From assembly GCA_041649955.1 (NCBI GenBank), contig JBAZMD010000003.1, positions 877-64,876 on the forward strand: a stretch of DNA of 64,000 nucleotides. The letters run 5' to 3'. Below the pieces are notes generated by a model, which searched no databases, had not been told where the DNA came from, and worked only from the letters and a program-made list of their open reading frames with translations. The DNA comes from Patescibacteria group bacterium. Its GTDB lineage: Bacteria; Patescibacteriota; Patescibacteriia; UBA2591; JAQUPP01. Both the position numbers and the translations under genes were made by a program. Below, piece by piece: positions 1,442 to 64,000 of the stretch (positions are counted from its first letter, which is position 1; each line of letters begins with the position of its first letter).

Positions 1442-3496
1442 ATGAATATAACTGAATTAGCCAGAGTTTTAAAAGTTACACCGCAAGAGCTTAAGGAAAA
1501 ATTACCCGAGCTCGGTTTTCATATTGGTTTAAGAGCGATTCAAATTCCGGACGATCAGGCTAATAAAGTAATAGAATCTTGGCACGAAGCGGAAAAAAAA
1601 TCTGCTTTGCTTCAAAAAATTAAAGATAAAATGTCGCGCGTGGCAGATGAAGAAGAAATTGTTAAAATTAATTCTATTTCTATCCCGCCGACAATTCAGG
1701 TTTATCGCTTGGCTGAGAGATTAAAAATGCCCATTACTAAATTAATGGGAGAGCTGATTAAAAATGGAGTTTTAGCCAGTATTAATGAAAATTTAGATTT
1801 TGAAGTTGCGGCGATTGTTGCCGAAAAATTGGGATTTAAAGCGACCAGGGGCGAGGAAGGAGAAGAAATAAAGAAGAAAAAAATGATTAAAGAAAGATTG
1901 GAAGAAGTTTTGGCGCAAGAAGACAAAAATGATTTGATTATGCGTCCGCCAGTGGTAGTGGTAATGGGTCATGTTGATCACGGCAAGACCACTATTTTGG
2001 ACGCTATTCGCCAAACTCATGTTGCTGACAAAGAAGTGGGCGGCATTACTCAAAAAATCGGCGCCTATCAGGTGATTGTTCCTATAAAAGAAAAAGAACA
2101 ATCATCCCGAGCGAAGCGAGGGATAGATAGCACATCAAGCCGCACAATTACTTTTATAGACACGCCGGGCCATGAAACATTTCAAGCCATGCGATCAAGA
2201 GGCGGAGAAGCGGCTGATATTGCCGTTTTAGTGGTGGCGGCTGATGATAAAATTCAGCCTCAAACCATTGAATCAATAAAAATTATTCAGCAAGAAAATT
2301 TGCCGTTTATAGTGGCGATTAATAAAATAGATAAACCTGAAGCAGATGTTGAAAGAGTCAAAAAAGGTTTGTCGGAAATTAATTTAATACCCGAAGATTG
2401 GGGCGGTTCGGTTATTTGCGTGCCGGTTTCAGGCAAAACAAAACAAGGAATTGATGAATTATTGGAAATGATAATTCTTTTGGCAGATATGAAAAAAGAT
2501 AAATTAATGGCCAATCCTAAAGGAACATTGGTCGGAACGATTATTGAAACTCATCGCGACCCGGGCGCGGGTGAAGTGGCAAGTTTGATTATTTTTAACG
2601 GACTTTTGGAAAAAGGCACTAATCTTATTGCCGGGCATGGTTATGGAAGGGTTAAATTAATTAAGAATCGGGCTAATAAAGAAGTAGAAAAAGCGCCAAG
2701 CGGCATGCCGGTTCAAATTTTCGGTCTTAAAGGAGTGGTGAAGGTCGGAGATATTGTTGAAGAAGTGAAAGATAATAAAGAATTTAAAAAGAAAATTAAA
2801 GAAATTGATTTATCTTATCAAAAAAGAGGAGACAATAATCAAACACAAGGAGTAAAAGATAAAAAAACGACCAGAAAATCTCTTAATCTTATTTTAAGAG
2901 CTGATGTTTCCGGATCGCTTGAAGCTGTTATTCATGCTTTGGAAAAAATAAATCATCCGGAAGTAAAAATTAATATTTTAAAAAAAGATTTGGGCAATCT
3001 GACTGAAATTGACGTGGAATTAGCCAAAAATGCCAATGCTTGGCTGATTGGTTTTAACGTTGATATGACCAATCAAGCGAAACAAGCAGCCTCGGACATG
3101 GGAATCAAGATAAATATTTATCAAATTATTTACGATTTATTACAGAATGTCAAAGATGAAATGAATAAATCTTTTTCCATAGAAATTATAGAAGAAAAGA
3201 CCGGTAAATTGGAAGTTTTGGCGATTTTCAGAACTGCCGGCAAGGAAACAATTTTAGGTGGCCGGGTTGTAACCGGTAAAATATTTAAAGATAATATCGC
3301 CAGAGTTTGGGGAATAAATCAAGAATTAAAAGGCGAGGGAAAAATCGTTGAGCTTCAAGTTCATCATCAAGACGCGGCAGAAGCCAAACTTGGCACGGAA
3401 TGCGGATTGAAACTCGTCGGTTCGGCGGAAATTGTGGTGGGAGATTTTTTGGAAACTTATCGCGAAATTAAAAAAGAAAAGAAATTTATAGTTTAA
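1442..3496 (+). CDS. infB: Translation initiation factor IF-2
   Basis: G-domain motifs 'GHVDHGKTT', 'DTPGH', 'NKIDK'; typical IF-2 C-terminal domains; ~18-aa insertion between 'GAYQV' and 'ITFIDTPGH' relative to E. coli IF-2. Confidence 0.9.
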   Translation: MNITELARVLKVTPQELKEKLPELGFHIGLRAIQIPDDQANKVIESWHEAEKKSALLQKIKDKMSRVADEEEIVKINSISIPPTIQVYRLAERLKMPITKLMGELIKNGVLASINENLDFEVAAIVAEKLGFKATRGEEGEEIKKKKMIKERLEEVLAQEDKNDLIMRPPVVVVMGHVDHGKTTILDAIRQTHVADKEVGGITQKIGAYQVIVPIKEKEQSSRAKRGIDSTSSRTITFIDTPGHETFQAMRSRGGEAADIAVLVVAADDKIQPQTIESIKIIQQENLPFIVAINKIDKPEADVERVKKGLSEINLIPEDWGGSVICVPVSGKTKQGIDELLEMIILLADMKKDKLMANPKGTLVGTIIETHRDPGAGEVASLIIFNGLLEKGTNLIAGHGYGRVKLIKNRANKEVEKAPSGMPVQIFGLKGVVKVGDIVEEVKDNKEFKKKIKEIDLSYQKRGDNNQTQGVKDKKTTRKSLNLILRADVSGSLEAVIHALEKINHPEVKINILKKDLGNLTEIDVELAKNANAWLIGFNVDMTNQAKQAASDMGIKINIYQIIYDLLQNVKDEMNKSFSIEIIEEKTGKLEVLAIFRTAGKETILGGRVVTGKIFKDNIARVWGINQELKGEGKIVELQVHHQDAAEAKLGTECGLKLVGSAEIVVGDFLETYREIKKEKKFIV

Positions 3497-9237: not shown

Positions 9238-9360
9238 GTTACCCCCTCTTTTATCTCAACGATAAATTTTCGATAATCGTTAGGATAAAAGGCGAAGCCG
9301 CTTCACTTACGGAATATTGTAAAACGAAAGGCTCTCGATGGAGTAAAAGAGGGGGTGCTC
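9238..9360. repeat. Degenerate inverted-repeat element (family B-like: TACCCCCTCTTTTATCTC ... GAGTAAAAGAGGGGGTGCTC)
   Basis: Inverted termini seen directly; internal segment 'ataaaaggcgaagccgcttcacttacggaatattgtaaaacg' resembles internal segment of element at 29119-29245. Confidence 0.5.
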
Positions 9361-10102: not shown

Positions 10103-10233
10103 TAAGAGTACGTTGACAATTTAGATATTAGAAGCCTATTAATCTAAAAACATTAGTCTATTCAAACGCAAATCAAAGCGGGTAGCTAATCTGTTTCTTA
10201 ATTATAAATTTTGGATCAAATAATCTCTTTTAA

Positions 10234-11750
<1,517 letters not shown>

Positions 11751-11949
11751 AGAGGACTTATATTTTTTCTATTACTTTCGAGTAATAGAAAAATTAAGGT
11801 CGAAGGTTAGTTTACCCGCTTTGATTTGCGTTTTTAGAGCAAGAAAACCAGTTGACTTAACTGGTTTTTTTGTTTAGAATAAATAACAACTCCGACGCTT
11901 TGAAGGTCGGAGCCCCGACTGTAACGTCGGGGTGAGAATATTTAAAATA

Positions 11950-12112
11950 GGGGTTGACCCCCATACCTGAACGGCGATAAAATACTCAGTAACGTATTTT
12001 TAAATTTTTTTAAAAATAGAAATAAATTTTATAATTTAAAACAGATTAATCAAATAAAATGAACAATTTCTCGCATTTTAAAAATATATCGCCGTTTGGT
12101 GCGGGGGTTGAC
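11950..12112. repeat. MITE-like inverted-repeat element, family A (termini GGGGTTGACCCCCATACCTGAACGGCGAT / ATCGCCGTTTGGTGCGGGGGTTGAC, AT-rich core)
   Basis: Perfect/near-perfect 25-bp terminal inverted repeats in 16S-tRNA-Ile spacer. Confidence 0.6.
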
Positions 12113-12149
12113 TAATAATATAATTTTGTTAATATTAAAATGATTTTTT

Positions 12150-12224
12150 GCGCGAGTAGTTCAATGGTAGAACGCGTCTCTGATAAAGACGAGGTTGAAG
12201 GTTCGATTCCTTCCTCGCGCACCA
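12150..12224 (+). tRNA. tRNA-Ile (anticodon GAT), CCA encoded
   Basis: Cloverleaf: acceptor gcgcgag/ctcgcgc, anticodon loop ctGATaa, T-arm ggttcgattcc. Confidence 0.85.
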
Positions 12225-15213: not shown

Positions 15214-16701
15214 ATGTTATCTAAAAATACGAACAATTTTAAGTTGAATTTGGAGTTCCTAAATAAGGATAAGAATTTTAGTTTTTTAAATAAACTCCAG
15301 AAGAAATTTCCCAAAGCGGAAATTTATTTGGTTGGCGGCGCAGTTAGAGATTTATTTTTAAAAAAGGAAACCAAAGATTATGATTTTGTCATCTGTAAAG
15401 TTAAAATATCTGATTTGGAAAAATTTTTAGCGAATTTGGGACAAGTGGAATTTGTCGGCAAAAGTTTTGGTGTTTTCAAGTTTACACCCAAGGGCGGAGA
15501 TAAGCATAATCCTTTTGATATTGCCTTGCCTCGCCGCGATTTTTCTTTTAATACCGGCGGTTATCGCGATGTGAAAGTTTTAACTAATCCCAACTTGCCG
15601 ATTGAAGAGGATTTATCTCGCCGCGATTTTACGATTAATGCCATTGCGGTTGAAATTAAAACAGGTAATATTATTGATCCGTTTAACGGCTTAAAAGACC
15701 TCAAAAACAAGATTATTCGGTCAGTTGGCAAGCCGAAAGATCGATTTAAAGAAGATTATTCCAGAATGCTGCGAGCGATAAGATTCGCCTGCCAATTGGA
15801 TTTCCAAATTGAAAAAAATACTTGGCAAGCCATTAAATCTAAAATTAAATCAATTACCAAAGCAGTGCCTTATGAAATTATTGCCCGGGAATTTCTAAAA
15901 TCTTTTTATTTCAATCCGGTTAAAGCTTTAGATTTATTTGATCAAAGCGGATTTTTTAAAGTAATAATGCCGGAAATTTTAAAAATGAAAAATTGTCCGC
16001 AACCGAAAAATTTTCATTCCGAAGGAGATGTTTGGGTGCATACGCGCTTGGCACTGGAAAAATTATTTTCTCCTCAATTCAAAAAGCAATTTGGCGATGA
16101 AAGACCGAATACAGAATTGATTATCGCCACTCTTTTCCATGATTTGGGAAAGCCGCCAACAATTCAAACTCCGGAAAAAAATCATACTGACCGTATTCGT
16201 TTTAATGAACATGATGTGGTGGGTGCGGAAAAAACCAAAAAAATTTGCGAGAGATTAAAATTTTCAAGTCCTGAAAATTTTGGTGTTGATCCGGAAAAAA
16301 TCGCCTGGTTGATTAAAAATCACATGCTTTTGGTCCACGGCAATGCTCTTAAAATGCGGCCTCAAACCATTGAAAAATATTTTTTTAATCCAAATTTGCC
16401 GGGCGAAAATTTGTTAAAACTTTCGTTTGCGGATATTTCGGCCACTATTTTGGAAAAAGGCCATTCGGATTTTGGTGATTTCAAAAATATGCTGAAAAGA
16501 ATTAAAGAATTAAAAAAATTAAGCGCCAACAAGAAGGAATTACCTAAGCCGATTTTAAACGGCAATGAAATTATGAAAGAATTTAAGTTAAAACCCGGAC
16601 CCAGAATAGGCGAATTGTTGGAGATTTTAAGAGAAAAACAGCTTGAAGGAAAAATTAAAGATAAAAAATCAGCCTTGACTTTTTTTAAAAACCTAATATA
16701 A
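15214..16701 (+). CDS. cca: CCA-adding tRNA nucleotidyltransferase with HD domain
   Basis: PolyA-pol/CCA head 'LVGGAVRDLFL...DYDFV...RRDFTINA'; HD motif 'HTRLALE...LFHDLGKP'. Confidence 0.8.
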   Translation: MLSKNTNNFKLNLEFLNKDKNFSFLNKLQKKFPKAEIYLVGGAVRDLFLKKETKDYDFVICKVKISDLEKFLANLGQVEFVGKSFGVFKFTPKGGDKHNPFDIALPRRDFSFNTGGYRDVKVLTNPNLPIEEDLSRRDFTINAIAVEIKTGNIIDPFNGLKDLKNKIIRSVGKPKDRFKEDYSRMLRAIRFACQLDFQIEKNTWQAIKSKIKSITKAVPYEIIAREFLKSFYFNPVKALDLFDQSGFFKVIMPEILKMKNCPQPKNFHSEGDVWVHTRLALEKLFSPQFKKQFGDERPNTELIIATLFHDLGKPPTIQTPEKNHTDRIRFNEHDVVGAEKTKKICERLKFSSPENFGVDPEKIAWLIKNHMLLVHGNALKMRPQTIEKYFFNPNLPGENLLKLSFADISATILEKGHSDFGDFKNMLKRIKELKKLSANKKELPKPILNGNEIMKEFKLKPGPRIGELLEILREKQLEGKIKDKKSALTFFKNLI

Positions 16702-17424: not shown

Positions 17425-17596
17425 AGAAATTTTTACTAGAAAACCTTTACCCCGCATTAAGCCCGCTTATAGAAAATATAATAAGTCGCAATTAAGCCGC
17501 AGGCGATGCAGCGCGCAAAATTAATATTAAAAATTAAATTTTATTAAGCTTTGGTGCGCGGGTAACAAATTTTTTAAATAAAAAAGTGAGATAAAA

Positions 17597-19004: not shown

Positions 19005-19856
19005 TTACAGAGATTTTTTATAGACTTCCATAATTTCTCTCAACCGTTTTTCGTCAATGGCTGGCATTTCTATTCCCAAATTTTTGGCTTTTTGATTGGA
19101 TAAAACGCAATTGCTTCGTTTAGCGCTGGTAATATTATAAAGTTCATTCAAAGAAATTAATTCATATTGATGACTTGGATTGACTATTTCTTGATAGGCT
19201 TTGAGCATTTGTTCGTGGGTCAAATAATTGTCATTCACTAAATTTAAAATGCCAATCGGACGGATTTCGGCCAATTTAACCAAGGCCGGAAACATATCTT
19301 CAATTAAAGTCACGGAATTAGGTAAAGAAATAACTTTTTTATAAGAAATTATTTTATTAAGCAGATTGCGCGGATGAGAATGCATGGAAATCGGCATTCT
19401 GATTCTAAGTTGGAGAACGGGTAATTCTTTAAGCGCCATTTGCATCGCGACTCTCATTTGGGAATAAAAACTGCCGAAAAAATTCGGTTCATCTTCTTCG
19501 CTAAAAGGTGTTTCCGGCGTGCCGGAATAAATACAACCCGAAGCGATTTGGATCATAAAGCTTGACGCTTCCAGAGCGGCCAAAGCGACGTTAATCGCTC
19601 CCGCCACATTGACCGCCACAGTTTCTTGTTTATGAGTTTCACACCAATCAATATTCGGATAAGCTCTGACGCCGGCAAAATTAATCACCACATCAGGCTT
19701 GGTTTCCTGAAATTTTTTCTTTAAAGCCGGCAAATCGGTAATATCAATTCTTTCGCTGAAAACTTCAAAATTATTTTGTTTCAAATATTCCACGAATTTT
19801 CCGCCCATAAATCCGCTTGCCCCCAAAATATAAAAATTTGGTTTTTTATTTTCCAT
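19005..19856 (-). CDS. NAD(P)-dependent epimerase/dehydratase family protein (RmlD/dTDP-4-dehydrorhamnose reductase-like)
   Basis: N-terminal Rossmann 'ILGASGFMGGKF', short-chain dehydrogenase/epimerase architecture. Confidence 0.65.
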   Translation of the reverse strand: MENKKPNFYILGASGFMGGKFVEYLKQNNFEVFSERIDITDLPALKKKFQETKPDVVINFAGVRAYPNIDWCETHKQETVAVNVAGAINVALAALEASSFMIQIASGCIYSGTPETPFSEEDEPNFFGSFYSQMRVAMQMALKELPVLQLRIRMPISMHSHPRNLLNKIISYKKVISLPNSVTLIEDMFPALVKLAEIRPIGILNLVNDNYLTHEQMLKAYQEIVNPSHQYELISLNELYNITSAKRSNCVLSNQKAKNLGIEMPAIDEKRLREIMEVYKKSL

Positions 19857-19863
19857 ATTTGCT

Positions 19864-20005
19864 ATTATACCTATTTAAAATTTATTGGCAATCTTATAAT
19901 TTATTATCGGTATACTCATTTATACACAACAAAAGCATTGACAAAAAGCGGGGGGGGGTAAACTATAAGTAAGGTTAAAAATTAATTATTAACTTAATTT
20001 TTTTT
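19864..20005 (+). promoter_or_regulatory. Repeated upstream region copy 1: TTGACA-(19 nt incl. G9 tract)-TATAAG promoter-like + conserved 5' leader
   Basis: ~75 bp identical to 21120-21192 except G-tract length (9 G at 19950-19958); TTGACA at 19939-19944, TATAAG at 19964-19969. Confidence 0.55.
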
Positions 20006-20017
20006 CTCGAAGTTAGC

Positions 20018-20833
20018 TTGCGCTATATAAGAGAAGAAATGAAAACTATGTCAGAAAAAAAAGAAGGTCAGGTGCCACATCAAGAGCACGAAAAAGTAAT
20101 TGAGCAACAAGAAAAAACGATAGAAGAAATGAAAAAAGTATTAGCTGAAAAATTTCCTTTACATTATTATACTGTTTCGAAAAATGGAAAATTTTTTGGT
20201 GGTAATGCTCAATCTGGAGAGGATATTTTACAGGAGAATCCAAATCACGCTTATCACTTTAATAAAGAAAATGCTGAAAATTTTGTAAATTTAGATAAGG
20301 ATTATAAAATTCAAGAGATTGACAATGGAGAAACAGGTATTGATAGTATAATTTTTTGTAAGAAGATTTGTGGCATTCCTATGACTGAAAAAGAGAAAGA
20401 AACCCATGAAAAATATAGGGGCTTATCAAAAGAAATAGAGCGATGGGCAGAAGAGATGGAGATAGAATTGAAGAAAGCTATTACGTCAAATAAAGATCTT
20501 CATTACGAATACAGTTACGAAGAATTAGCAGGTTTTCCAGGAGATAAGTATAAGGAAGGAGACCCCGCTTACAAAGGAGTACACAAAAATAGTATTCAAG
20601 TTCGTCCTTTTGATGTTGAAAACAATTCAATACAGATTTATTTCGCGCCTCATGTTAATTATAAGACAGCAGCCGAAGGAGAACACAAATTAGTTAGCGT
20701 TACTGCCATTGAGATAGATCAAAAGAGATTTATAATAGAATATATTAAAAATACACCATTTTACAAAAAATTTAAGCCAACTATTATTTTAGACCAGCCA
20801 TCTGGATTCAAAGAGATTGTTACACCGGAATAG
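20018..20833 (+). CDS. Hypothetical protein (start possibly Met at 20039)
   Basis: ORF only; hydrophilic, no recognisable domain, no signal peptide. Confidence 0.45.
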   Translation: MRYIREEMKTMSEKKEGQVPHQEHEKVIEQQEKTIEEMKKVLAEKFPLHYYTVSKNGKFFGGNAQSGEDILQENPNHAYHFNKENAENFVNLDKDYKIQEIDNGETGIDSIIFCKKICGIPMTEKEKETHEKYRGLSKEIERWAEEMEIELKKAITSNKDLHYEYSYEELAGFPGDKYKEGDPAYKGVHKNSIQVRPFDVENNSIQIYFAPHVNYKTAAEGEHKLVSVTAIEIDQKRFIIEYIKNTPFYKKFKPTIILDQPSGFKEIVTPE

Positions 20834-21001: not shown

Positions 21002-21033
21002 AAAAAATAAGGGTTTAAACCCTTATTTTTTAT
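21002..21033 (+). terminator. Rho-independent terminator
   Basis: aaaaaataagggtttaaacccttatttttt hairpin + T-run. Confidence 0.65.
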
Positions 21034-21192
21034 TATACCTATCTGAAATTCGTTGGCAATCTTATAATTTATTCTCTGTGTACTCATTTTGTACGTATAG
21101 ACATCTTGATTTATCAATAACAAAAGCATTGACAAAAAGCGGGGGGGGTAAACTATAAGTAAGGTTAAAAATTAATTATTAACTTAATTTTT
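21033..21192 (+). promoter_or_regulatory. Repeated upstream region copy 2: TTGACA-(18 nt incl. G8 tract)-TATAAG
   Basis: G8 at 21141-21148; otherwise identical 75-bp core to copy 1; contains a 24-bp insertion relative to copy 1 in the 5' half. Confidence 0.55.
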
Positions 21193-21233
21193 CCGAAATT
21201 GACTTAGTCATATAAGGAAAAATAGAAAAAATT

Positions 21234-21962
21234 ATGCCAGAAAAAAATAGAGGATTTAATCCTGACACTTCACAAAATAAAGGAATAAAATCTCAAAATA
21301 TAGAGCTCTACGATAAAGAAGGAAGAGTGCAAGACCCTGAAATTGCGCAGGTAATGGCTAAGATTGAGAAACCTTATCGAGAGCAGAAACGATGGGGAGT
21401 ATTTGGTCCGTCTAAGAAAACAATAGAAAAAGGAGAACAGCTTGCTGAAGAGAGAGGAGAGGAATCTTTAGAAGGGCGGAAAGATCATTTACGAAGGGAA
21501 ATAATAGATACTATAAACTATCTATTGCATAAAAAGGGAACAGAACGCAGTATTAGTTATACAGCAAAAGGAGTACACCAATTTGGAGGTCCATGGAGCA
21601 AGATGGTACAAAATACAGAGCATAAGTTGGATTTAGATATAGCAGACGGAATATCAATAAATTACACTCTAATTGGCGGTGGTTTTGCACCAGACGGCCT
21701 TTTAATGAATGGACATAGTTTAGATATTGACAGGCTTAGTTATGATGAAAGAAAAACACTATTAAAGGCATTAAAGGAAACGGCAGAGCCATACAAAGTT
21801 TCCGATAGAGAGAGAAGTTTAAAAAAGGAAAATTCAAGGATTCTGTCAGACGAGAAAGTAAAAGGAAAACAGGAATCAGAACATAAGATCGCAGCAGAAG
21901 GAGAATCCAAGGTTGCAGAGTTGTTAAAAGAATTAGCAAAAAAATATAAAGAGAAAAATTAG
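21234..21962 (+). CDS. Hypothetical protein
   Basis: ORF only; hydrophilic, Lys/Glu-rich C-terminus; unrelated in sequence to 20018-20833 product. Confidence 0.45.
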   Translation: MPEKNRGFNPDTSQNKGIKSQNIELYDKEGRVQDPEIAQVMAKIEKPYREQKRWGVFGPSKKTIEKGEQLAEERGEESLEGRKDHLRREIIDTINYLLHKKGTERSISYTAKGVHQFGGPWSKMVQNTEHKLDLDIADGISINYTLIGGGFAPDGLLMNGHSLDIDRLSYDERKTLLKALKETAEPYKVSDRERSLKKENSRILSDEKVKGKQESEHKIAAEGESKVAELLKELAKKYKEKN

Positions 21963-26902: not shown

Positions 26903-27052
26903 AACCTTTACCCCCTCCTTTTGAGTGCTTTTAAATTCATATATAAAGACTTAATAAAGAAAGAGAGACAATTCTAAAATATAAAAGTTAGTTATCTTAA
27001 ACAACGGATTTAAAGGAGTACTGAAAGCATCTAAAAGGAGGGGGTACTCAAA
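26903..27052. repeat. Family-B inverted-repeat element, 'empty' copy (~150 bp, no ORF)
   Basis: Termini 'AACCTTTACCCCCTCCTTTTGAGTGCTTTT' and 'GGAGTACTGAAAGCATCTAAAAGGAGGGGGTACTCAAA' match (in reverse orientation) both ends of the GIY-YIG-containing element at 29758-30050. Confidence 0.65.
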
Positions 27053-28996: not shown

Positions 28997-29011
28997 GTTT
29001 GGAATAAAATA

Positions 29012-29085
29012 CGGTCCGGACGGGGCTCGAACCCGCAACCTCATCCGTGACAGGGATGCGATCTAACCAGTTGATCTACCGGACC
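29012..29085 (-). tRNA. tRNA-Asp (anticodon GTC), no encoded CCA
   Basis: Reverse complement folds: acceptor ggtccgg/ccggacc, anticodon loop ctGTCac, T-arm gcgggttcgagcccc. Confidence 0.85.
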
Positions 29086-29118
29086 ATTGAAATTATTATA
29101 TCAATTTTTTATTTCTTG

Positions 29119-29245
29119 GCAAGCCCCCACACCAAACTTGTCGTTAATCTTACGAACAAGAAGGTATAAAGGCAAAGCCGCTTCGCTTTTATAATTTTGT
29201 ATAATAGAACTTCTGCGTTGAGTTGTGGTGTGGGGGCAAGCCCCC
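29119..29245. repeat. MITE-like element family A (termini GCAAGCCCCCACACCAAAC / GTTGTGGTGTGGGGGCAAGCCCCC)
   Basis: Terminal inverted repeats seen directly; 20 bp upstream of tRNA-Asp 5' end. Confidence 0.6.
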
Positions 29246-29757: not shown

Positions 29758-30050
29758 TTTGAGTACCCCCTCCTTTTAGATGCTTTCAGTACTCCTTTTA
29801 ATTCGTTTTTTAAGATAACCCCAAGCACTTTTATATTTTTTAAGCTGTTTTTCTCGTTCCATTGCGTCTTTTTTATCTTGGTAGGCTTCATAATATATTA
29901 AGCCTAAAATTTGTTTCTCGCGTTGGTGGGTTTTAATTCTTTTCTTCAAGTCCGTAGAGAAACCAACATATATCGTTTCATTCGGTAATTTGACTAGATA
30001 GACATAATACATAAGTTCAAAAGCACTCAAAAGGAGGGGATAAAGGTTTT
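29758..30050 (-). mobile_element. Family-B TIR element carrying a GIY-YIG nuclease gene, inserted between rpmI and rplT
   Basis: Termini match the empty element at 26903-27052; internal ORF is GIY-YIG. Confidence 0.65.
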
Positions 30051-31391: not shown

Positions 31392-31548
31392 AAATGTCAA
31401 CCCCGTAGAACAACTTTGACCTCTCTTTTAATTGCGGGTAATAAATAGGCAAAATATAATAAAGTAATCTACTTTTAACTTAAAGATTAGTAAATTTAAC
31501 CGAGAGTAAGCAATTGTCAAAGTTAATCTACGGGGTCAAGGTCTTTTT
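31392..31548. repeat. Inverted-repeat element (termini GTCAACCCCGTAGAACAACTTTGAC / GTCAAAGTTAATCTACGGGGTCAAGG)
   Basis: ~26-bp terminal inverted repeats; left end overlaps tmRNA -35, right end overlaps smpB stop region. Confidence 0.5.
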
Positions 31549-37220: not shown

Positions 37221-37387
37221 TCGTCAACCCCCACACCAAACGGCGATTTGTATTTTTTTAAATACGAAATTATTTAATTCTGTATTTAAGATTACTTATT
37301 TATTTGTCTAAAATTTATCTTATTTCGAAAATCCAAAAAATACAAAAATTGAGCATTTATCGCCATTCTGGTGTGGGGGTCAAGCCC
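37221..37387. repeat. MITE-like element family A (termini CGTCAACCCCCACACCAAACGGCGAT / ATCGCCATTCTGGTGTGGGGGTCAAGCCC)
   Basis: Near-perfect 26-bp TIRs, AT-rich ~110-bp core, between ACP-like operon and ileS. Confidence 0.6.
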
Positions 37388-37441
37388 TTGCTTTTTTATT
37401 TTTTTCTGTTAAAATTAAGTTATTAAAACTTTTTATCCAAT

Positions 37442-45544: not shown

Positions 45545-45550
45545 ATTTTT

Positions 45551-45570
45551 TTGGAGCGGGCTCCACCACC
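45551..45570. repeat. Solo copy of family-A left terminus (TTGGAGCGGGCTCCACCACC)
   Basis: Identical 20-mer again at 45851-45870; the two copies bracket the GIY-YIG gene. Confidence 0.55.
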
Positions 45571-45578
45571 AATATGTT

Positions 45579-45878
45579 TTACATTAAGCTTTTTTCTATT
45601 CTAATTTTAAGCTGATGATAAACCCGACTATATTTTTTTAATCGAGACTCTCTTTGTTTAGCGTCTTCTCTAGATTTATATGATTCGTAATAAATTATTT
45701 CAAATGGACGTCTCGGTTTAGTCGCTTTAACTAATCCTTTATTATGTTCAATAAAACGTTTTTTTAAATCGTCAGTAAAACCAATGTATAATTTTTTATC
45801 TTTTTTACTTTTCAATAAATATACATAAAACATAATCAGTTGGAAATTTTGGAGCGGGCTCCACCACCTGAATGGCAA
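45579..45878 (-). CDS. Small GIY-YIG nuclease family protein (true start likely Met 'MFYVYLLKS' ~45833)
   Basis: 'FYVYLLKSKKDKKLYIGFTDDLKKRFIEHNKG' GIY-YIG block; ORF-track N-terminus 'MPFRWWSPLQ' is read from the inverted-repeat terminus. Confidence 0.75.
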   Translation of the reverse strand: MPFRWWSPLQNFQLIMFYVYLLKSKKDKKLYIGFTDDLKKRFIEHNKGLVKATKPRRPFEIIYYESYKSREDAKQRESRLKKYSRVYHQLKIRIEKSLM

Positions 45879-46002
45879 TGTATTTTTTATAAATGCGAAA
45901 TCATTGCTTCTAATAAATAAATCTATATTTTTTTTCTTTATAATCTAATCTTTTTCAAAAATACATAACAAGCATTTATTGCCATTCTGGTGGTGGAGCG
46001 GG
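45851..46002. repeat. MITE-like element family A variant (GAGCGGGCTCCACCACCTGAATGGCAAT / ATTGCCATTCTGGTGGTGGAGCGGG), right end overlapping tRNA-Trp 3' end
   Basis: TIRs seen directly; right terminus contains tRNA-Trp acceptor 3' strand + CCA. Confidence 0.55.
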
Positions 46003-46067
46003 TAAGGGGAGTCGGACCCCTGTCAACAGCTTGGAAAGCTGTGGTAATACCGTTATACGATACCCGC
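45997..46067 (-). tRNA. tRNA-Trp (anticodon CCA)
   Basis: rc folds: acceptor gcgggta/tacccgc, anticodon loop ttCCAag, T-arm aggggtccgactcccct; 3' 'tCCA' present within the repeat. Confidence 0.75.
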
Positions 46068-51430: not shown

Positions 51431-51502
51431 TCGCCCCTTTTGGTTTTGACGAATAGGAAAAAAAGATATAAAATATAAGATAAGAATCTTACCAATTAAT
51501 TT

Positions 51503-51763
51503 ATGTTTTTTGTTTATATTTTAAAAAGCTCTAAAAATAAATGGTTTTATATCGGGTCAACTTCAGATTTAAATAAAAGATTAGAAGAACATAATTTAGG
51601 AAAAGTTGTTTCTACTAATTTTTATCGACCATTAAAATTAATTTATTACGAAGCTTATTTTTCTGAAAAAGACGCAAGACATCGTGAACATAATTTAAAG
51701 TTAAAATCTAGAGCTTTTGTTCAATTAAAAAAGAGACTTAAGAGTACATTAGAAAATATATAA
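51503..51763 (+). CDS. Small GIY-YIG nuclease family protein
   Basis: 'MFFVYILKSSKNKWFYIGSTSDLNKRLEEHN' GIY-YIG block. Confidence 0.8.
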   Translation: MFFVYILKSSKNKWFYIGSTSDLNKRLEEHNLGKVVSTNFYRPLKLIYYEAYFSEKDARHREHNLKLKSRAFVQLKKRLKSTLENI

Positions 51764-51780
51764 AATTTAATTATCTTTAA

Positions 51781-51900
51781 GAGGCGTGCCTCCACACCAA
51801 ACGGGAGTGGAGAAAATAAATAATATTTTAACGGCATAATCTATAAAGGTAAATATACGGGAGATAAATATAATATCCCCGTTTGGTGTGGAGGCGTGGC
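51781..51900. repeat. MITE-like element family A (GAGGCGTGCCTCCACACCAAACGGGAG / CCCCGTTTGGTGTGGAGGCGTGGC), right terminus overlapping tRNA-Ser 5' end
   Basis: TIRs seen directly; last 10 nt = tRNA-Ser acceptor 5' strand. Confidence 0.55.
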
Positions 51901-51979
51901 TGAGTGGTCGAAAGCGGCAGTTTCGAAAACTGCTATACCCGTAAGGGTATCAGAGGTTCGAATCCTCTCGCCTCCGCCA
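51890..51979 (+). tRNA. tRNA-Ser (anticodon CGA), long variable arm, CCA encoded
   Basis: Acceptor ggaggcg/cgcctcc, anticodon stem gcagt/actgc loop ttCGAaa, variable arm tatacccgtaagggtatc, T-arm gaggttcgaatcctc. Confidence 0.8.
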
Positions 51980-63498: not shown

Positions 63499-64000
63499 AG
63501 TTAAGTGGTGAATTAGAAAATTAGAGTGTGTGGTGGATGCCTAGACATCAAAAGCCGATAAAGGACGTAGCAGCCTGCGATAAGCTTCGGGGAGGTGGCA
63601 AGCAACCTTTGATCCGGAGATTTCCGAATGGGGTAACCTATTTGCGCCAAAACGCAAATGGCTATGACTTTAGTTATAGCCGGGAACCTGGGGAAGTGAA
63701 ACATCTCAGTACCCAGAGGAAAATAAAGTGATAACGTATTCCCTTAGTAGTGGCGAGCGAAAAGGGAGAAGTCTAAATCTTAAGAGATCTAAGCTAGATA
63801 AGGGGTCTGTCGCAAGATGGAATCTTTTGTCCAGTAAAAGGCATTAGCGCTAAAATATCTTTTGAGAGGTTGTGAGATTGTTAATGTTTTATTCGCTATT
63901 GAATAAAGTTAGAATTTAGTTTCTTAGTCGAAAAACCTGGAAAGGTTTACCATAGAAGGTGATAGGCCTGTAGACGAAAAGATTTTAAATTCTAATAGTT
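63499..64000 (+). rRNA. rrl: 23S ribosomal RNA, 5' portion (continues beyond window)
   Basis: 'ggtggatgcctag', 'gaaggacgtag', 'gggaaccggggaactgaaacatctcagtaccc'-like 'cctggggaagtgaaacatctcagtacccagaggaaaa', 'gtagtggcgagcgaaa'. Confidence 0.85.

Follow-up and report, generated by a model that had tools for sequence, protein, structure and literature searches.

A stretch of 64,000 nucleotides from a bacterium of the Patescibacteria group, or Candidate Phyla Radiation (CPR) (assembly GCA_041649955.1, contig JBAZMD010000003.1, positions 877 to 64,876; hereafter the window), contains five copies of a short repeated sequence, here called family A, which is a previously undescribed and recently active family of MITEs (miniature inverted-repeat transposable elements) of the Patescibacteria. 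In the reading that we favor, and to which we assign a probability of about 0.78, family A is a non-autonomous DNA transposon that inserts into targets of the form YNNR and duplicates 4 bp of them, the promoters and tRNA ends that it enters being rebuilt in the process. The window is of low GC content (~35%) and has ten tRNA genes and one tmRNA gene. CPR genomes are usually described as transposon-poor, and our search of the literature found no paper describing MITEs in the Patescibacteria.

The preliminary description of this DNA had reported the five copies, and all of them are present at the places it gave; their limits could be refined from tip to tip, and a 4-bp direct repeat lies directly outside the tips of each one. 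The copies, designated c1 to c5, are as follows.

11958-12107 (150 nt), minus strand when read from left to right end: c1, with TTGA duplicated at 11954-11957 and 12108-12111.
29124-29236 (113 nt), plus strand: c2, with CAAG duplicated at 29120-29123 and 29237-29240.
37228-37379 (152 nt), plus strand: c3, with TCAA duplicated at 37224-37227 and 37380-37383.
45859-45998 (140 nt), plus strand: c4, with the diverged tips CTCCACCACC and GGTGGTGGAG and with CGGG duplicated at 45855-45858 and 45999-46002.
51789-51894 (106 nt), plus strand: c5, with the tips CCTCC and GGAGG and with CGTG duplicated at 51785-51788 and 51895-51898.

The 20-mer terminus quoted in the preliminary description has three matches with at most three mismatches in the window, against none in 100 shuffles; the diverged arms of c2 and c4 were recovered by a looser search and by a repeat finder, and both arms were found in all five copies. 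The left end has a consensus of approximately CCCCCACACCAAACGG[C/G]GAT; reading inward from the right end gives CCCCCACACCA[T/G]AACGG, the left-end sequence plus one extra base. Two copies depart from this left-right arrangement, c5 having two left-type ends and c4 two right-type ends, and two are diverged, c2 sharing the terminus over its outer 14 nt only and c4 in its tip. An AT-rich core of 140-150 nt is common to c1, c3, and c4; the cores of c2 and c5 are different. The long hairpins foreseen for these elements are borne out, since all five fold with energies of -43 to -54 kcal/mol and z scores of -3.9 to -7.4, the control being a simple mononucleotide shuffle. There are no open reading frames (ORFs) within the five window copies, and none of the Rfam 15 covariance models matches any of them, the only hits being spurious long-hairpin microRNA matches far below threshold. 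Family A elements are small (MITEs being below ~500 bp) and non-coding, share terminal inverted repeats (TIRs), generate target duplications of fixed length, and are polymorphic in their presence, four of the features by which a MITE is recognized; an autonomous relative whose transposase acts on the same ends was found neither in the window, nor in ~85 fetched loci, nor by near-exact 16-20-mer scans of a viral collection.

The polymorphism is revealed by comparison with related genomes, cited here by the L numbers of their loci. Four relatives whose IleS proteins are 94-95% identical to that of the window (L029, L030, L031, and L072) are syntenic with its 27-50 kb segment, and a fifth, with an identical KH-domain protein (L079), covers its first 13 kb. 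In agreement with the MITE-like nature first suggested for them, the elements are mobile: c1, c2, c3, and c5 are missing from the orthologous loci, and c4 is shared. For each of the four, comparison of filled and empty sites reveals exactly 4 bp duplicated, the empty site holding one copy of the 4-mer; these four copies are recent insertions. The c2 site of L029 is the uninterrupted TTGGCAAGTTAAAAAC; the locus reads TTGGCAAG-TT-AAAAAC when empty and TTGGCAAG[element]CAAG-CCCCC-AAAAAC in the window, an extra CCCCC at 29241-29245 standing in place of the native TT. Similarly, the c3 site is CGTCAAGGGGTTGC in L029, L031, and L072, and the empty CGTCAA-GGGG-TTGC corresponds to the filled CGTCAA[element]TCAA-GCCC-TTGC, with GCCC at 37384-37387 in place of the native GGGG; in the contig that bears P0005, the intergenic region at this locus is likewise short (151 nt). 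The c5 site of L031 is an uninterrupted tRNA-Ser gene, ...TCTAGGGAGGCGTGGCTGAG.... For c1 the empty site was reached in L079 by way of the identical KH-domain protein, where an uninterrupted ...AAATGGGGTTGACTAAT... lies between 16S and tRNA-Ile, the two sequences being compared by eye over the ~20 nt that they share. No close relative above 80% identity was found for the PurM-like neighbor of c1. The shared copy, c4, occurs in L029, L031, and L072; its core is diverging, but the arms have hardly changed, the one difference being a substitution in the left arm of L031.

In the window, c1 lies 42 nt upstream of tRNA-Ile (12150-12224) and ~200 nt downstream of the 16S gene, past a group of terminator-like hairpins. 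A distance of 52 kb separates the 16S gene (10228-11750) from the 23S gene, which begins at 63510 (63510-64000 in the window); three terminator-like hairpins follow the 3' end of 16S (11840-11935), and tRNA-Ile apparently has a promoter of its own. In L079 a MazG-like ORF occupies the 16S/tRNA-Ile interval.

What the target sites have in common is a 4-bp YNNR sequence, most often TCAA/TTGA(C), which corresponds to the -35 hexamer of a promoter, or TTTA/TAAA. On the TTGA side, 7 of 8 flanks continue as TTGAC, and a -10-like hexamer follows 16-18 nt further on at c1, c2, c3, L028, and L036 and, more loosely, at L021, L043, and L055. When a strict -35/-10 pattern is required, 4 of the 42 outward flanks still conform to it, the background rate being 0.29% (P ~7e-6). 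The promoter-like sites nearest to c1 and c2, at both of which a promoter scanner calls predicted promoters, and a second hairpin element in the window are the following.

12108-12135, plus strand: promoter-like site of tRNA-Ile, TTGACT-16-TAATAT, with TG before the -10 box; its TTGA is the right-hand copy of the c1 duplication.
29095-29122, minus strand: promoter-like site of tRNA-Asp, TTGCCA-16-TATAAT, with 11 of 12 matches and a TG; its first bases are the left-hand copy of the c2 duplication.
31401-31535: member of a second hairpin family, with tips CCCCGTAGAAC (CCCCGTAGAACAACTTTGAC... inverted repeats) and a TCAA duplication; also present in L029.

The last of these has entered the promoter of the tmRNA gene (TTGACA-17-TATAAT, minus strand) at its -35 box. 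The c3 empty site shows that the TTGACG-17-TTAAAT promoter of the divergent acyl-carrier-like gene was there already when the element arrived. A preference for the -35 hexamer as target accounts for c1, c2, c3, and the sister element at the tmRNA gene; and since, owing to the duplication, the native spacer and -10 box are still preceded by a complete TTGAC, the promoters survive the insertion. The sequence GGGGTTGAC was considered as a native promoter feature, the tmRNA promoter having it without a family A element, and was rejected because the GGGG in question is the tip of the 31401-31535 element.

A different kind of reconstruction is seen at the tRNA genes. The right end of c4 does overlap the 3' end of a tRNA, TGGAGCGGG being the reverse complement of ...CCCGCTCCA, but this gene is tRNA-Gly(TCC) (45994-46067, minus strand) rather than the tRNA-Trp first proposed. 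The last 5 nt of c4 and the duplication encode the 3' end CCCGCTCCA: the duplicated CCCG and the tip CTCCA re-create ...CCCGCTCCA, and an orphan copy of the tail, TGGAGCGGG, is left at 45850-45858 on the far side of the element. The right end of c5 likewise overlaps the start of tRNA-Ser (51890-51979), by 9 nt (5 nt of inverted repeat and the 4-nt duplication) and not by 10. Here, the element was inserted after nucleotide 9 of the gene, the duplicated target corresponding to nucleotides 6-9 (CGTG) of the L031 tRNA-Ser; the tip GGAGG and CGTG rebuild nucleotides 1-9, and the original 5' end, GAGGCGTG, is orphaned at 51781-51788. In both copies, the tips deviate from CCCCC/GGGGG exactly at the bases that the tRNA requires, and the opposite tip has the complementary change. 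A CCA-adding enzyme is encoded at 15214-16701, and the L031 tRNA-Ser lacks an encoded CCA, so repair of the 3' end after an insertion is feasible. As to that gene, the window tRNA-Ser (51969-51979) encodes its CCA and the L031 orthologue (17437-17447) does not (CGCCTCCGTTTT).

These results require some revision of the idea that family A targets tRNA genes. Of the 5 copies in the window, 4 are no more than 50 nt away from a tRNA, compared with 7-12% of intergenic bases (P ~1e-3); in other genomes, this holds for only 2 of 16 independent copies. These two are L043, whose copy occupies the promoter region of a tRNA-Leu, and L042/L057, where G1 of tRNA-Tyr is supplied by the final G of the element. 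Insertion with regeneration of the tRNA end is upheld, directly at c5 and by the same layout at c4, but general targeting of tRNA genes is not. Nor do the elements uniformly abut or overlap tRNA ends: c4 and c5 do so, but c1 and c2 sit in -35 boxes, and c2, thought to be 20 bp upstream of tRNA-Asp (29011-29086, minus strand), is in fact 37 nt from its 5' end. The association with tRNAs in the window can be ascribed to insertion into strong -35 boxes combined with a tolerance of insertions that rebuild a tRNA end. We infer that c4 and c5 are survivors whose G-rich tips nearly matched a G-rich acceptor end and were then fine-tuned, rather than the products of active targeting.

Family A is not restricted to this lineage. 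A degenerate 20-mer was scanned against 185,579 species-representative genomes, and metagenome and viral collections were scanned as well. The genome scan revealed true copies in Doudnabacteria, Saccharibacteria, Paceibacterota, and Parcubacteria metagenome-assembled genomes (MAGs) and in one contig labelled as gammaproteobacterial (see below), all its other matches being chance ones inside a conserved protein-coding gene of GC-rich bacteria; the metagenomes added ~19 further copies with the same termini and unrelated cores, and the viral collection gave chance matches only and no parent insertion sequence. A non-redundant catalogue comprises 21 independent copies of 58-180 nt, with termini of 16-20 bp whose outer 16 nt are almost invariant and with unrelated cores. 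Identical flanking repeats, of 4 bp and once of 5 bp, occur in 19 of the 21; eight are TCAA/TTGA (counting the 5-bp TCAAG of L028), seven TTTA/TAAA, and two CAAG/CTTG, with single cases of CAAA, CGTG, and CGGG. The difference between left and right ends is consistent across phyla, which fits the two ends of a parent insertion sequence. One of the genomes involved, GCA_964642485.1 (L006 and L061; CAZXPA010000015 and CAZXPA010000021), has 35% GC and is labelled "uncultured Gammaproteobacteria"; it carries a family A element and an inverted-repeat element with a GIY-YIG gene (see below), both typical of Patescibacteria, and the label is probably wrong.

We envisage the following sequence of events. 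A transposase supplied in trans and encoded outside the window, none of whose ORFs has a transposase domain, would cut the target with a 4-bp stagger and so give rise to the 4-bp duplications. Insertion would be into YNNR, mostly the TCAA/TTGA + C of the sigma-70 -35 hexamer or TTTA/TAAA, and where a -35 hexamer is hit, the duplication would preserve TTGAC whole in front of the native spacer and -10 box, with the result that the promoter survives. Owing to the GGGGG end of the element, insertions that fall a few bases into the G-rich acceptor end of a tRNA could be tolerated, the tip and the duplication together rebuilding the tRNA end; one or a few tip bases would subsequently adapt (GGGGG to GGAGG in c5; CTCCA in c4), and the opposite tip would follow. 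The 4-bp duplication and the ends that begin with CC are compatible with several insertion sequence (IS) families, although this is a resemblance only.

Several observations weigh against this scenario. No transposase gene bounded by family A termini was found in the ~85 loci examined; the scans of the collections used near-exact 16-20-mers, which diverged or full-length elements could escape. The genome-wide statistics rest on 64 kb and a set of scattered loci, and homology at the c1 empty site spans ~20 nt only. Six 97-nt members share an outer stem and two inner hairpins, a three-way fold that is maintained with seven compensatory pairs, and several species of Saccharibacteria have retained an element at one common locus; both facts would also fit a selected structure. 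Finally, the junctions of c2, c3, and L034a (2142-2149) are not what a simple cut-and-paste reaction with 4-bp staggered cuts would give: the 3-5 bases that follow the second duplication copy are now CCCC(C), the first bases of the element. This conversion replaces 2-4 native bases, extends the direct repeat to 8-11 nt, and creates a small GGGGG-N4-CCCC hairpin at one end; in c1 and c5, the run that matches the first bases of the element is native. Three candidate explanations can be offered for it: repair synthesis at one junction that switches template to the opposite junction; what is left of another copy that had entered the duplicated target in tandem and was later lost; or the residue of the junction (right end, 4 nt, left end) of a circular intermediate. 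A 9-bp target duplication and att-type site-specific recombination, considered as sources of the direct repeats of 9-11 nt, were both rejected: the G/C run is missing at the c2 and c3 empty sites, and copies in other lineages show 4 bp only. At 37373-37391 the converted flank of c3 and the native T-run form a terminator-like hairpin (GTGGGGGTCAAGCCCTTGC then TTTTTTATTT) just upstream of the ileS promoter region.

Could the hairpins instead be selected cis-acting structures, such as insulators, terminators, RNase III or RNase P signals, or small RNA genes, with mobility only incidental? We regard this as unlikely. The compensatory pairs of the 97-nt members would be expected of such a structure, as would the Saccharibacteria locus, where L021, L032, and L035 have a copy at the same position between divergent promoter-like sites; the near-constant arms of c4 around a drifting core and the terminator-like hairpin with its T-run beside c3 also lend it some support. 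However, close relatives have no element at the loci of 4 of the 5 window copies and function nonetheless, and complementary changes in the arms are equally expected from the identity of transposon ends or from arm-to-arm gene conversion. Both orientations occur, and the core can be flipped relative to the arms (L036 versus L055, L023 versus L033, and c4 versus c3), an arrangement hard to square with a strand-specific RNA. The main hairpin is not followed by a U-tract, no terminator is called there, and, as noted above, Rfam offers no match. The more particular suggestion of a tRNA-processing or terminator role is not supported, the elements being missing at the tRNA loci of relatives and most members lying away from tRNAs.

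A second alternative, to which we would give a slim chance, is that the CCCCC-tipped hairpin families, family A among them, are mobilized by tiny GIY-YIG nucleases and not by a classical transposase. The window has three GIY-YIG genes (Pfam E values of 5e-11 to 2e-17); these and the related elements are listed below.

29765-30041 (277 nt): GIY-YIG element with 23-bp inverted repeats ACCCCCTCCTTTTAGATGCTTT... (CCCCCTCCTTTT...); its sole ORF runs from 30012 to 29779 on the minus strand (78 aa).
26910-27045 (136 nt): ORF-less deletion derivative of the GIY-YIG element, which retains the two ends together with the final codons of the ORF; also present in L029.
45571-45846, minus strand: GIY-YIG cassette in the left arm of c4, with an ORF from 45833 to 45582 (84 aa).
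51496-51780, plus strand: GIY-YIG cassette near c5, between the native tRNA-Ser promoter (51446-51474) and c5, with an ORF at 51503-51760 (86 aa).
9242-9355: D-type hairpin element with tips CCCCCTCTTTTATC, at the center of an insertion of ~237 nt.

The element at 29765-30041, in which the stop codon of the ORF falls inside the inverted repeat, lies within an insertion of ~440 nt that is missing from L029. Homologues of its 78-aa protein occur elsewhere in the Patescibacteria (79% identity in L061/L062 and 51% in L063-L071) and are bounded by the same kind of repeat; set beside those of family A, these hairpin ends are of the CCCCCTCC type, and the elements in other Patescibacteria have conserved outer flanks (...YTTA immediately before and TRCTCA immediately after). 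The existence of both a GIY-YIG-encoding element with CCCCC tips and its ORF-less derivative speaks for a nuclease-driven system, and the GIY-YIG cassettes that adjoin c4 and c5, together with the lack of a transposase in the window, point the same way. So does the core of c2, which is homologous (~65-70% identical) to that of the 9242-9355 element despite the different, GIY-YIG-type tips of the latter, a relationship that implies exchange of tips and cores between families. On this hypothesis, family A and the elements at 31401-31535, 26910-27045, and 9242-9355 would form one superfamily that extends throughout the Patescibacteria, its autonomous members being units of ~280 bp that encode only a GIY-YIG protein of 75-85 aa (29765-30041, L061, and L063); the superfamily, too, strikes us as improbable. 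Were it real, it would represent a new kind of prokaryotic mobile element, in which a minimal GIY-YIG enzyme acts on hairpin or cruciform ends, and the junctions of duplication plus CCCC in c2, c3, and L034a would be footprints of an unusual chemistry.

Against this, the termini of family A are unlike those of the GIY-YIG elements beyond the CCCCC, and in other lineages no GIY-YIG gene lies next to a family A copy. The conserved outer flanks of the GIY-YIG-type units, their lack of a 4-bp duplication, and the size of the D-type unit (9242-9355), which exceeds that of its hairpin, all point to a different insertion mechanism. To our knowledge, GIY-YIG enzymes are nucleases and not strand-transferases. 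The cassette in c4, moreover, clearly entered a c4 that was already in place. A direct repeat of 22 nt, TTTTGGAGCGGGCTCCACCACC, borders it at 45549-45570 and 45847-45868, and it is missing from L031 and present in L029, L030, and L072. The cassette beside c5, which is also missing from L031, has an imperfect flanking direct repeat of ~20 nt that covers the -10 box and the leader, and in L058 (2100-2560) a similar cassette lies in the 5' end of a tRNA, 15 nt of which are duplicated. The free-standing GIY-YIG genes of 84-86 aa behave as mobile cassettes with target direct repeats of ~15-22 nt, and the position of each would allow its expression from a tRNA promoter.

The ~237-nt insertion that contains the 9242-9355 element is missing from L079, L081, and L083 and present in L080. 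The latter (1-800 versus 1500-3100) is nearly identical to the window over the KH-domain and TrmD genes, including this element, and differs from it in the 3' end of 16S and the region downstream, which suggests either recombination between lineages or a chimeric assembly.

Very unlikely, in our view, is a single-strand mechanism of the HUH type (IS200/IS605- or IS91-like), in which the flanking tetranucleotide is matched inside the element and there is no true duplication. The small number of flanking tetranucleotides (TCAA, CAAG, TTTA) and the TCAA shared by the related c1 and c3 would agree with it, CAAG/CTTG is a known target of IS91, and strong hairpins with a bulge conserved in one arm would suit the recognition of single-stranded DNA. 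Yet the tetranucleotide varies within the 97-nt subfamily (CAAG, TCAA, or TAAA), there is one copy of the 4-mer in the empty sites and two in the filled ones, around a perfect terminal inverted repeat, and no HUH gene was found in the window; IS200/IS605 elements themselves lack terminal inverted repeats. As for the view that the termini are conserved tRNA flanks or decayed tRNA fragments, which the tips overlapping tRNA-Gly and tRNA-Ser and a CACCA reminiscent of a tRNA 3' end might suggest, its probability is negligible: the tRNA-Ser, tRNA-Asp, and tRNA-Ile loci of relatives have no elements, the empty sites of c1, c2, c3, and c5 with their 4-bp duplications exclude conserved flanks, and most members lie far from tRNAs and have no detectable tRNA-like fold. 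Retron and 6S-RNA readings were rejected on anatomy.

Family A shows that active selfish DNA persists even in the small, gene-dense genomes of the Patescibacteria. Its two niches, the -35 hexamer restored by the duplication and the tRNA end restored by the tip, illustrate how such DNA can be maintained where nearly every site is essential. The insertions alter the sequence upstream of promoters and the structure of tRNA precursors between otherwise nearly identical strains, and they can mislead the annotation of tRNAs and promoters as well as the assembly of MAGs. Because the termini are conserved across lineages of class rank, they can serve to mark horizontal exchange and help to find the transposase. 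A further repeat in the window concerns none of these elements: 19853-20005 and 21021-21195 are direct repeats of 150-170 nt, 86-95% identical and with a run of G8-9, which precede two ORFs of unknown function (20018-20833 and 21234-21962).

Among known systems, a number can be set aside quickly. Repetitive extragenic palindromes and their mosaics (REP/BIME) are ~35-nt palindromic units with a GTAG head and an associated Y1 transposase (RAYT) gene; the arms of family A are not themselves palindromes and have no GTAG head, and the window contains no Y1/HUH gene. Palindrome-associated elements derived from IS200/IS605 make no target duplication and insert 3' of one fixed tetra- or pentanucleotide; family A has perfect terminal repeats, and its 4-mer is truly duplicated and varies within a subfamily. 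Integron attC sites have RYYYAAC ... GTTRRRY core sites and extrahelical bases and form cassette arrays beside an integrase; in family A, AAAC/GTT motifs occur 10 nt into the arms and do not match this consensus, the copies are dispersed, and the window encodes no integrase. An intrinsic terminator or tRNA-processing hairpin, for which a GC-rich stem with a following U-tract or conservation at orthologous tRNA loci would be expected, does not fit either, no terminator being called at the main hairpins and orthologous tRNA loci being free of elements.

Family A resembles the integrative elements that target tRNA genes, integrase-mediated islands and prophages by which the 3' end of the tRNA is duplicated, in that the tRNA end is reconstituted and a partial copy is left orphaned beyond the element (c4, c5, and L042 at tRNA-Tyr); unlike them, it has no integrase, it duplicates only 4 bp and takes the rest of the tRNA end from its tip, it uses both the 5' and the 3' ends of tRNAs, and most of its members are not at tRNAs at all. 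The Rickettsia palindromic elements (RPE) are likewise short, palindromic, and selfish, inhabit a reduced genome, and are kept where they are tolerated, including in genes for stable RNAs; they differ in lying in frame within protein-coding genes and in having no clear terminal repeats or duplications, whereas family A is intergenic or at gene ends. There are also the classical bacterial MITEs derived from insertion sequences (such as RUP from IS630-Spn1, and those of IS5/IS1380 type), with which family A has in common slightly different left and right TIRs, a duplication of fixed length, the architecture of a deletion derivative, and insertion polymorphism between strains; in contrast to these, no parent insertion sequence with family A ends was found in the collections scanned. 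A further parallel is the Correia element (CREE) of Neisseria. Both are 100-160 bp long and ORF-less, with TIRs of ~20-26 bp, many intergenic copies, and long hairpins if transcribed; in both, promoter elements are often found at or across the ends, and for neither is a cognate transposase known. Their sequences and termini are nevertheless unrelated: Correia elements duplicate TA and carry a promoter and IHF sites of their own, but family A duplicates a 4-bp YNNR and targets the -35 box itself, and it belongs to a different taxon, the Patescibacteria, across whose classes its termini have been conserved around unrelated cores.

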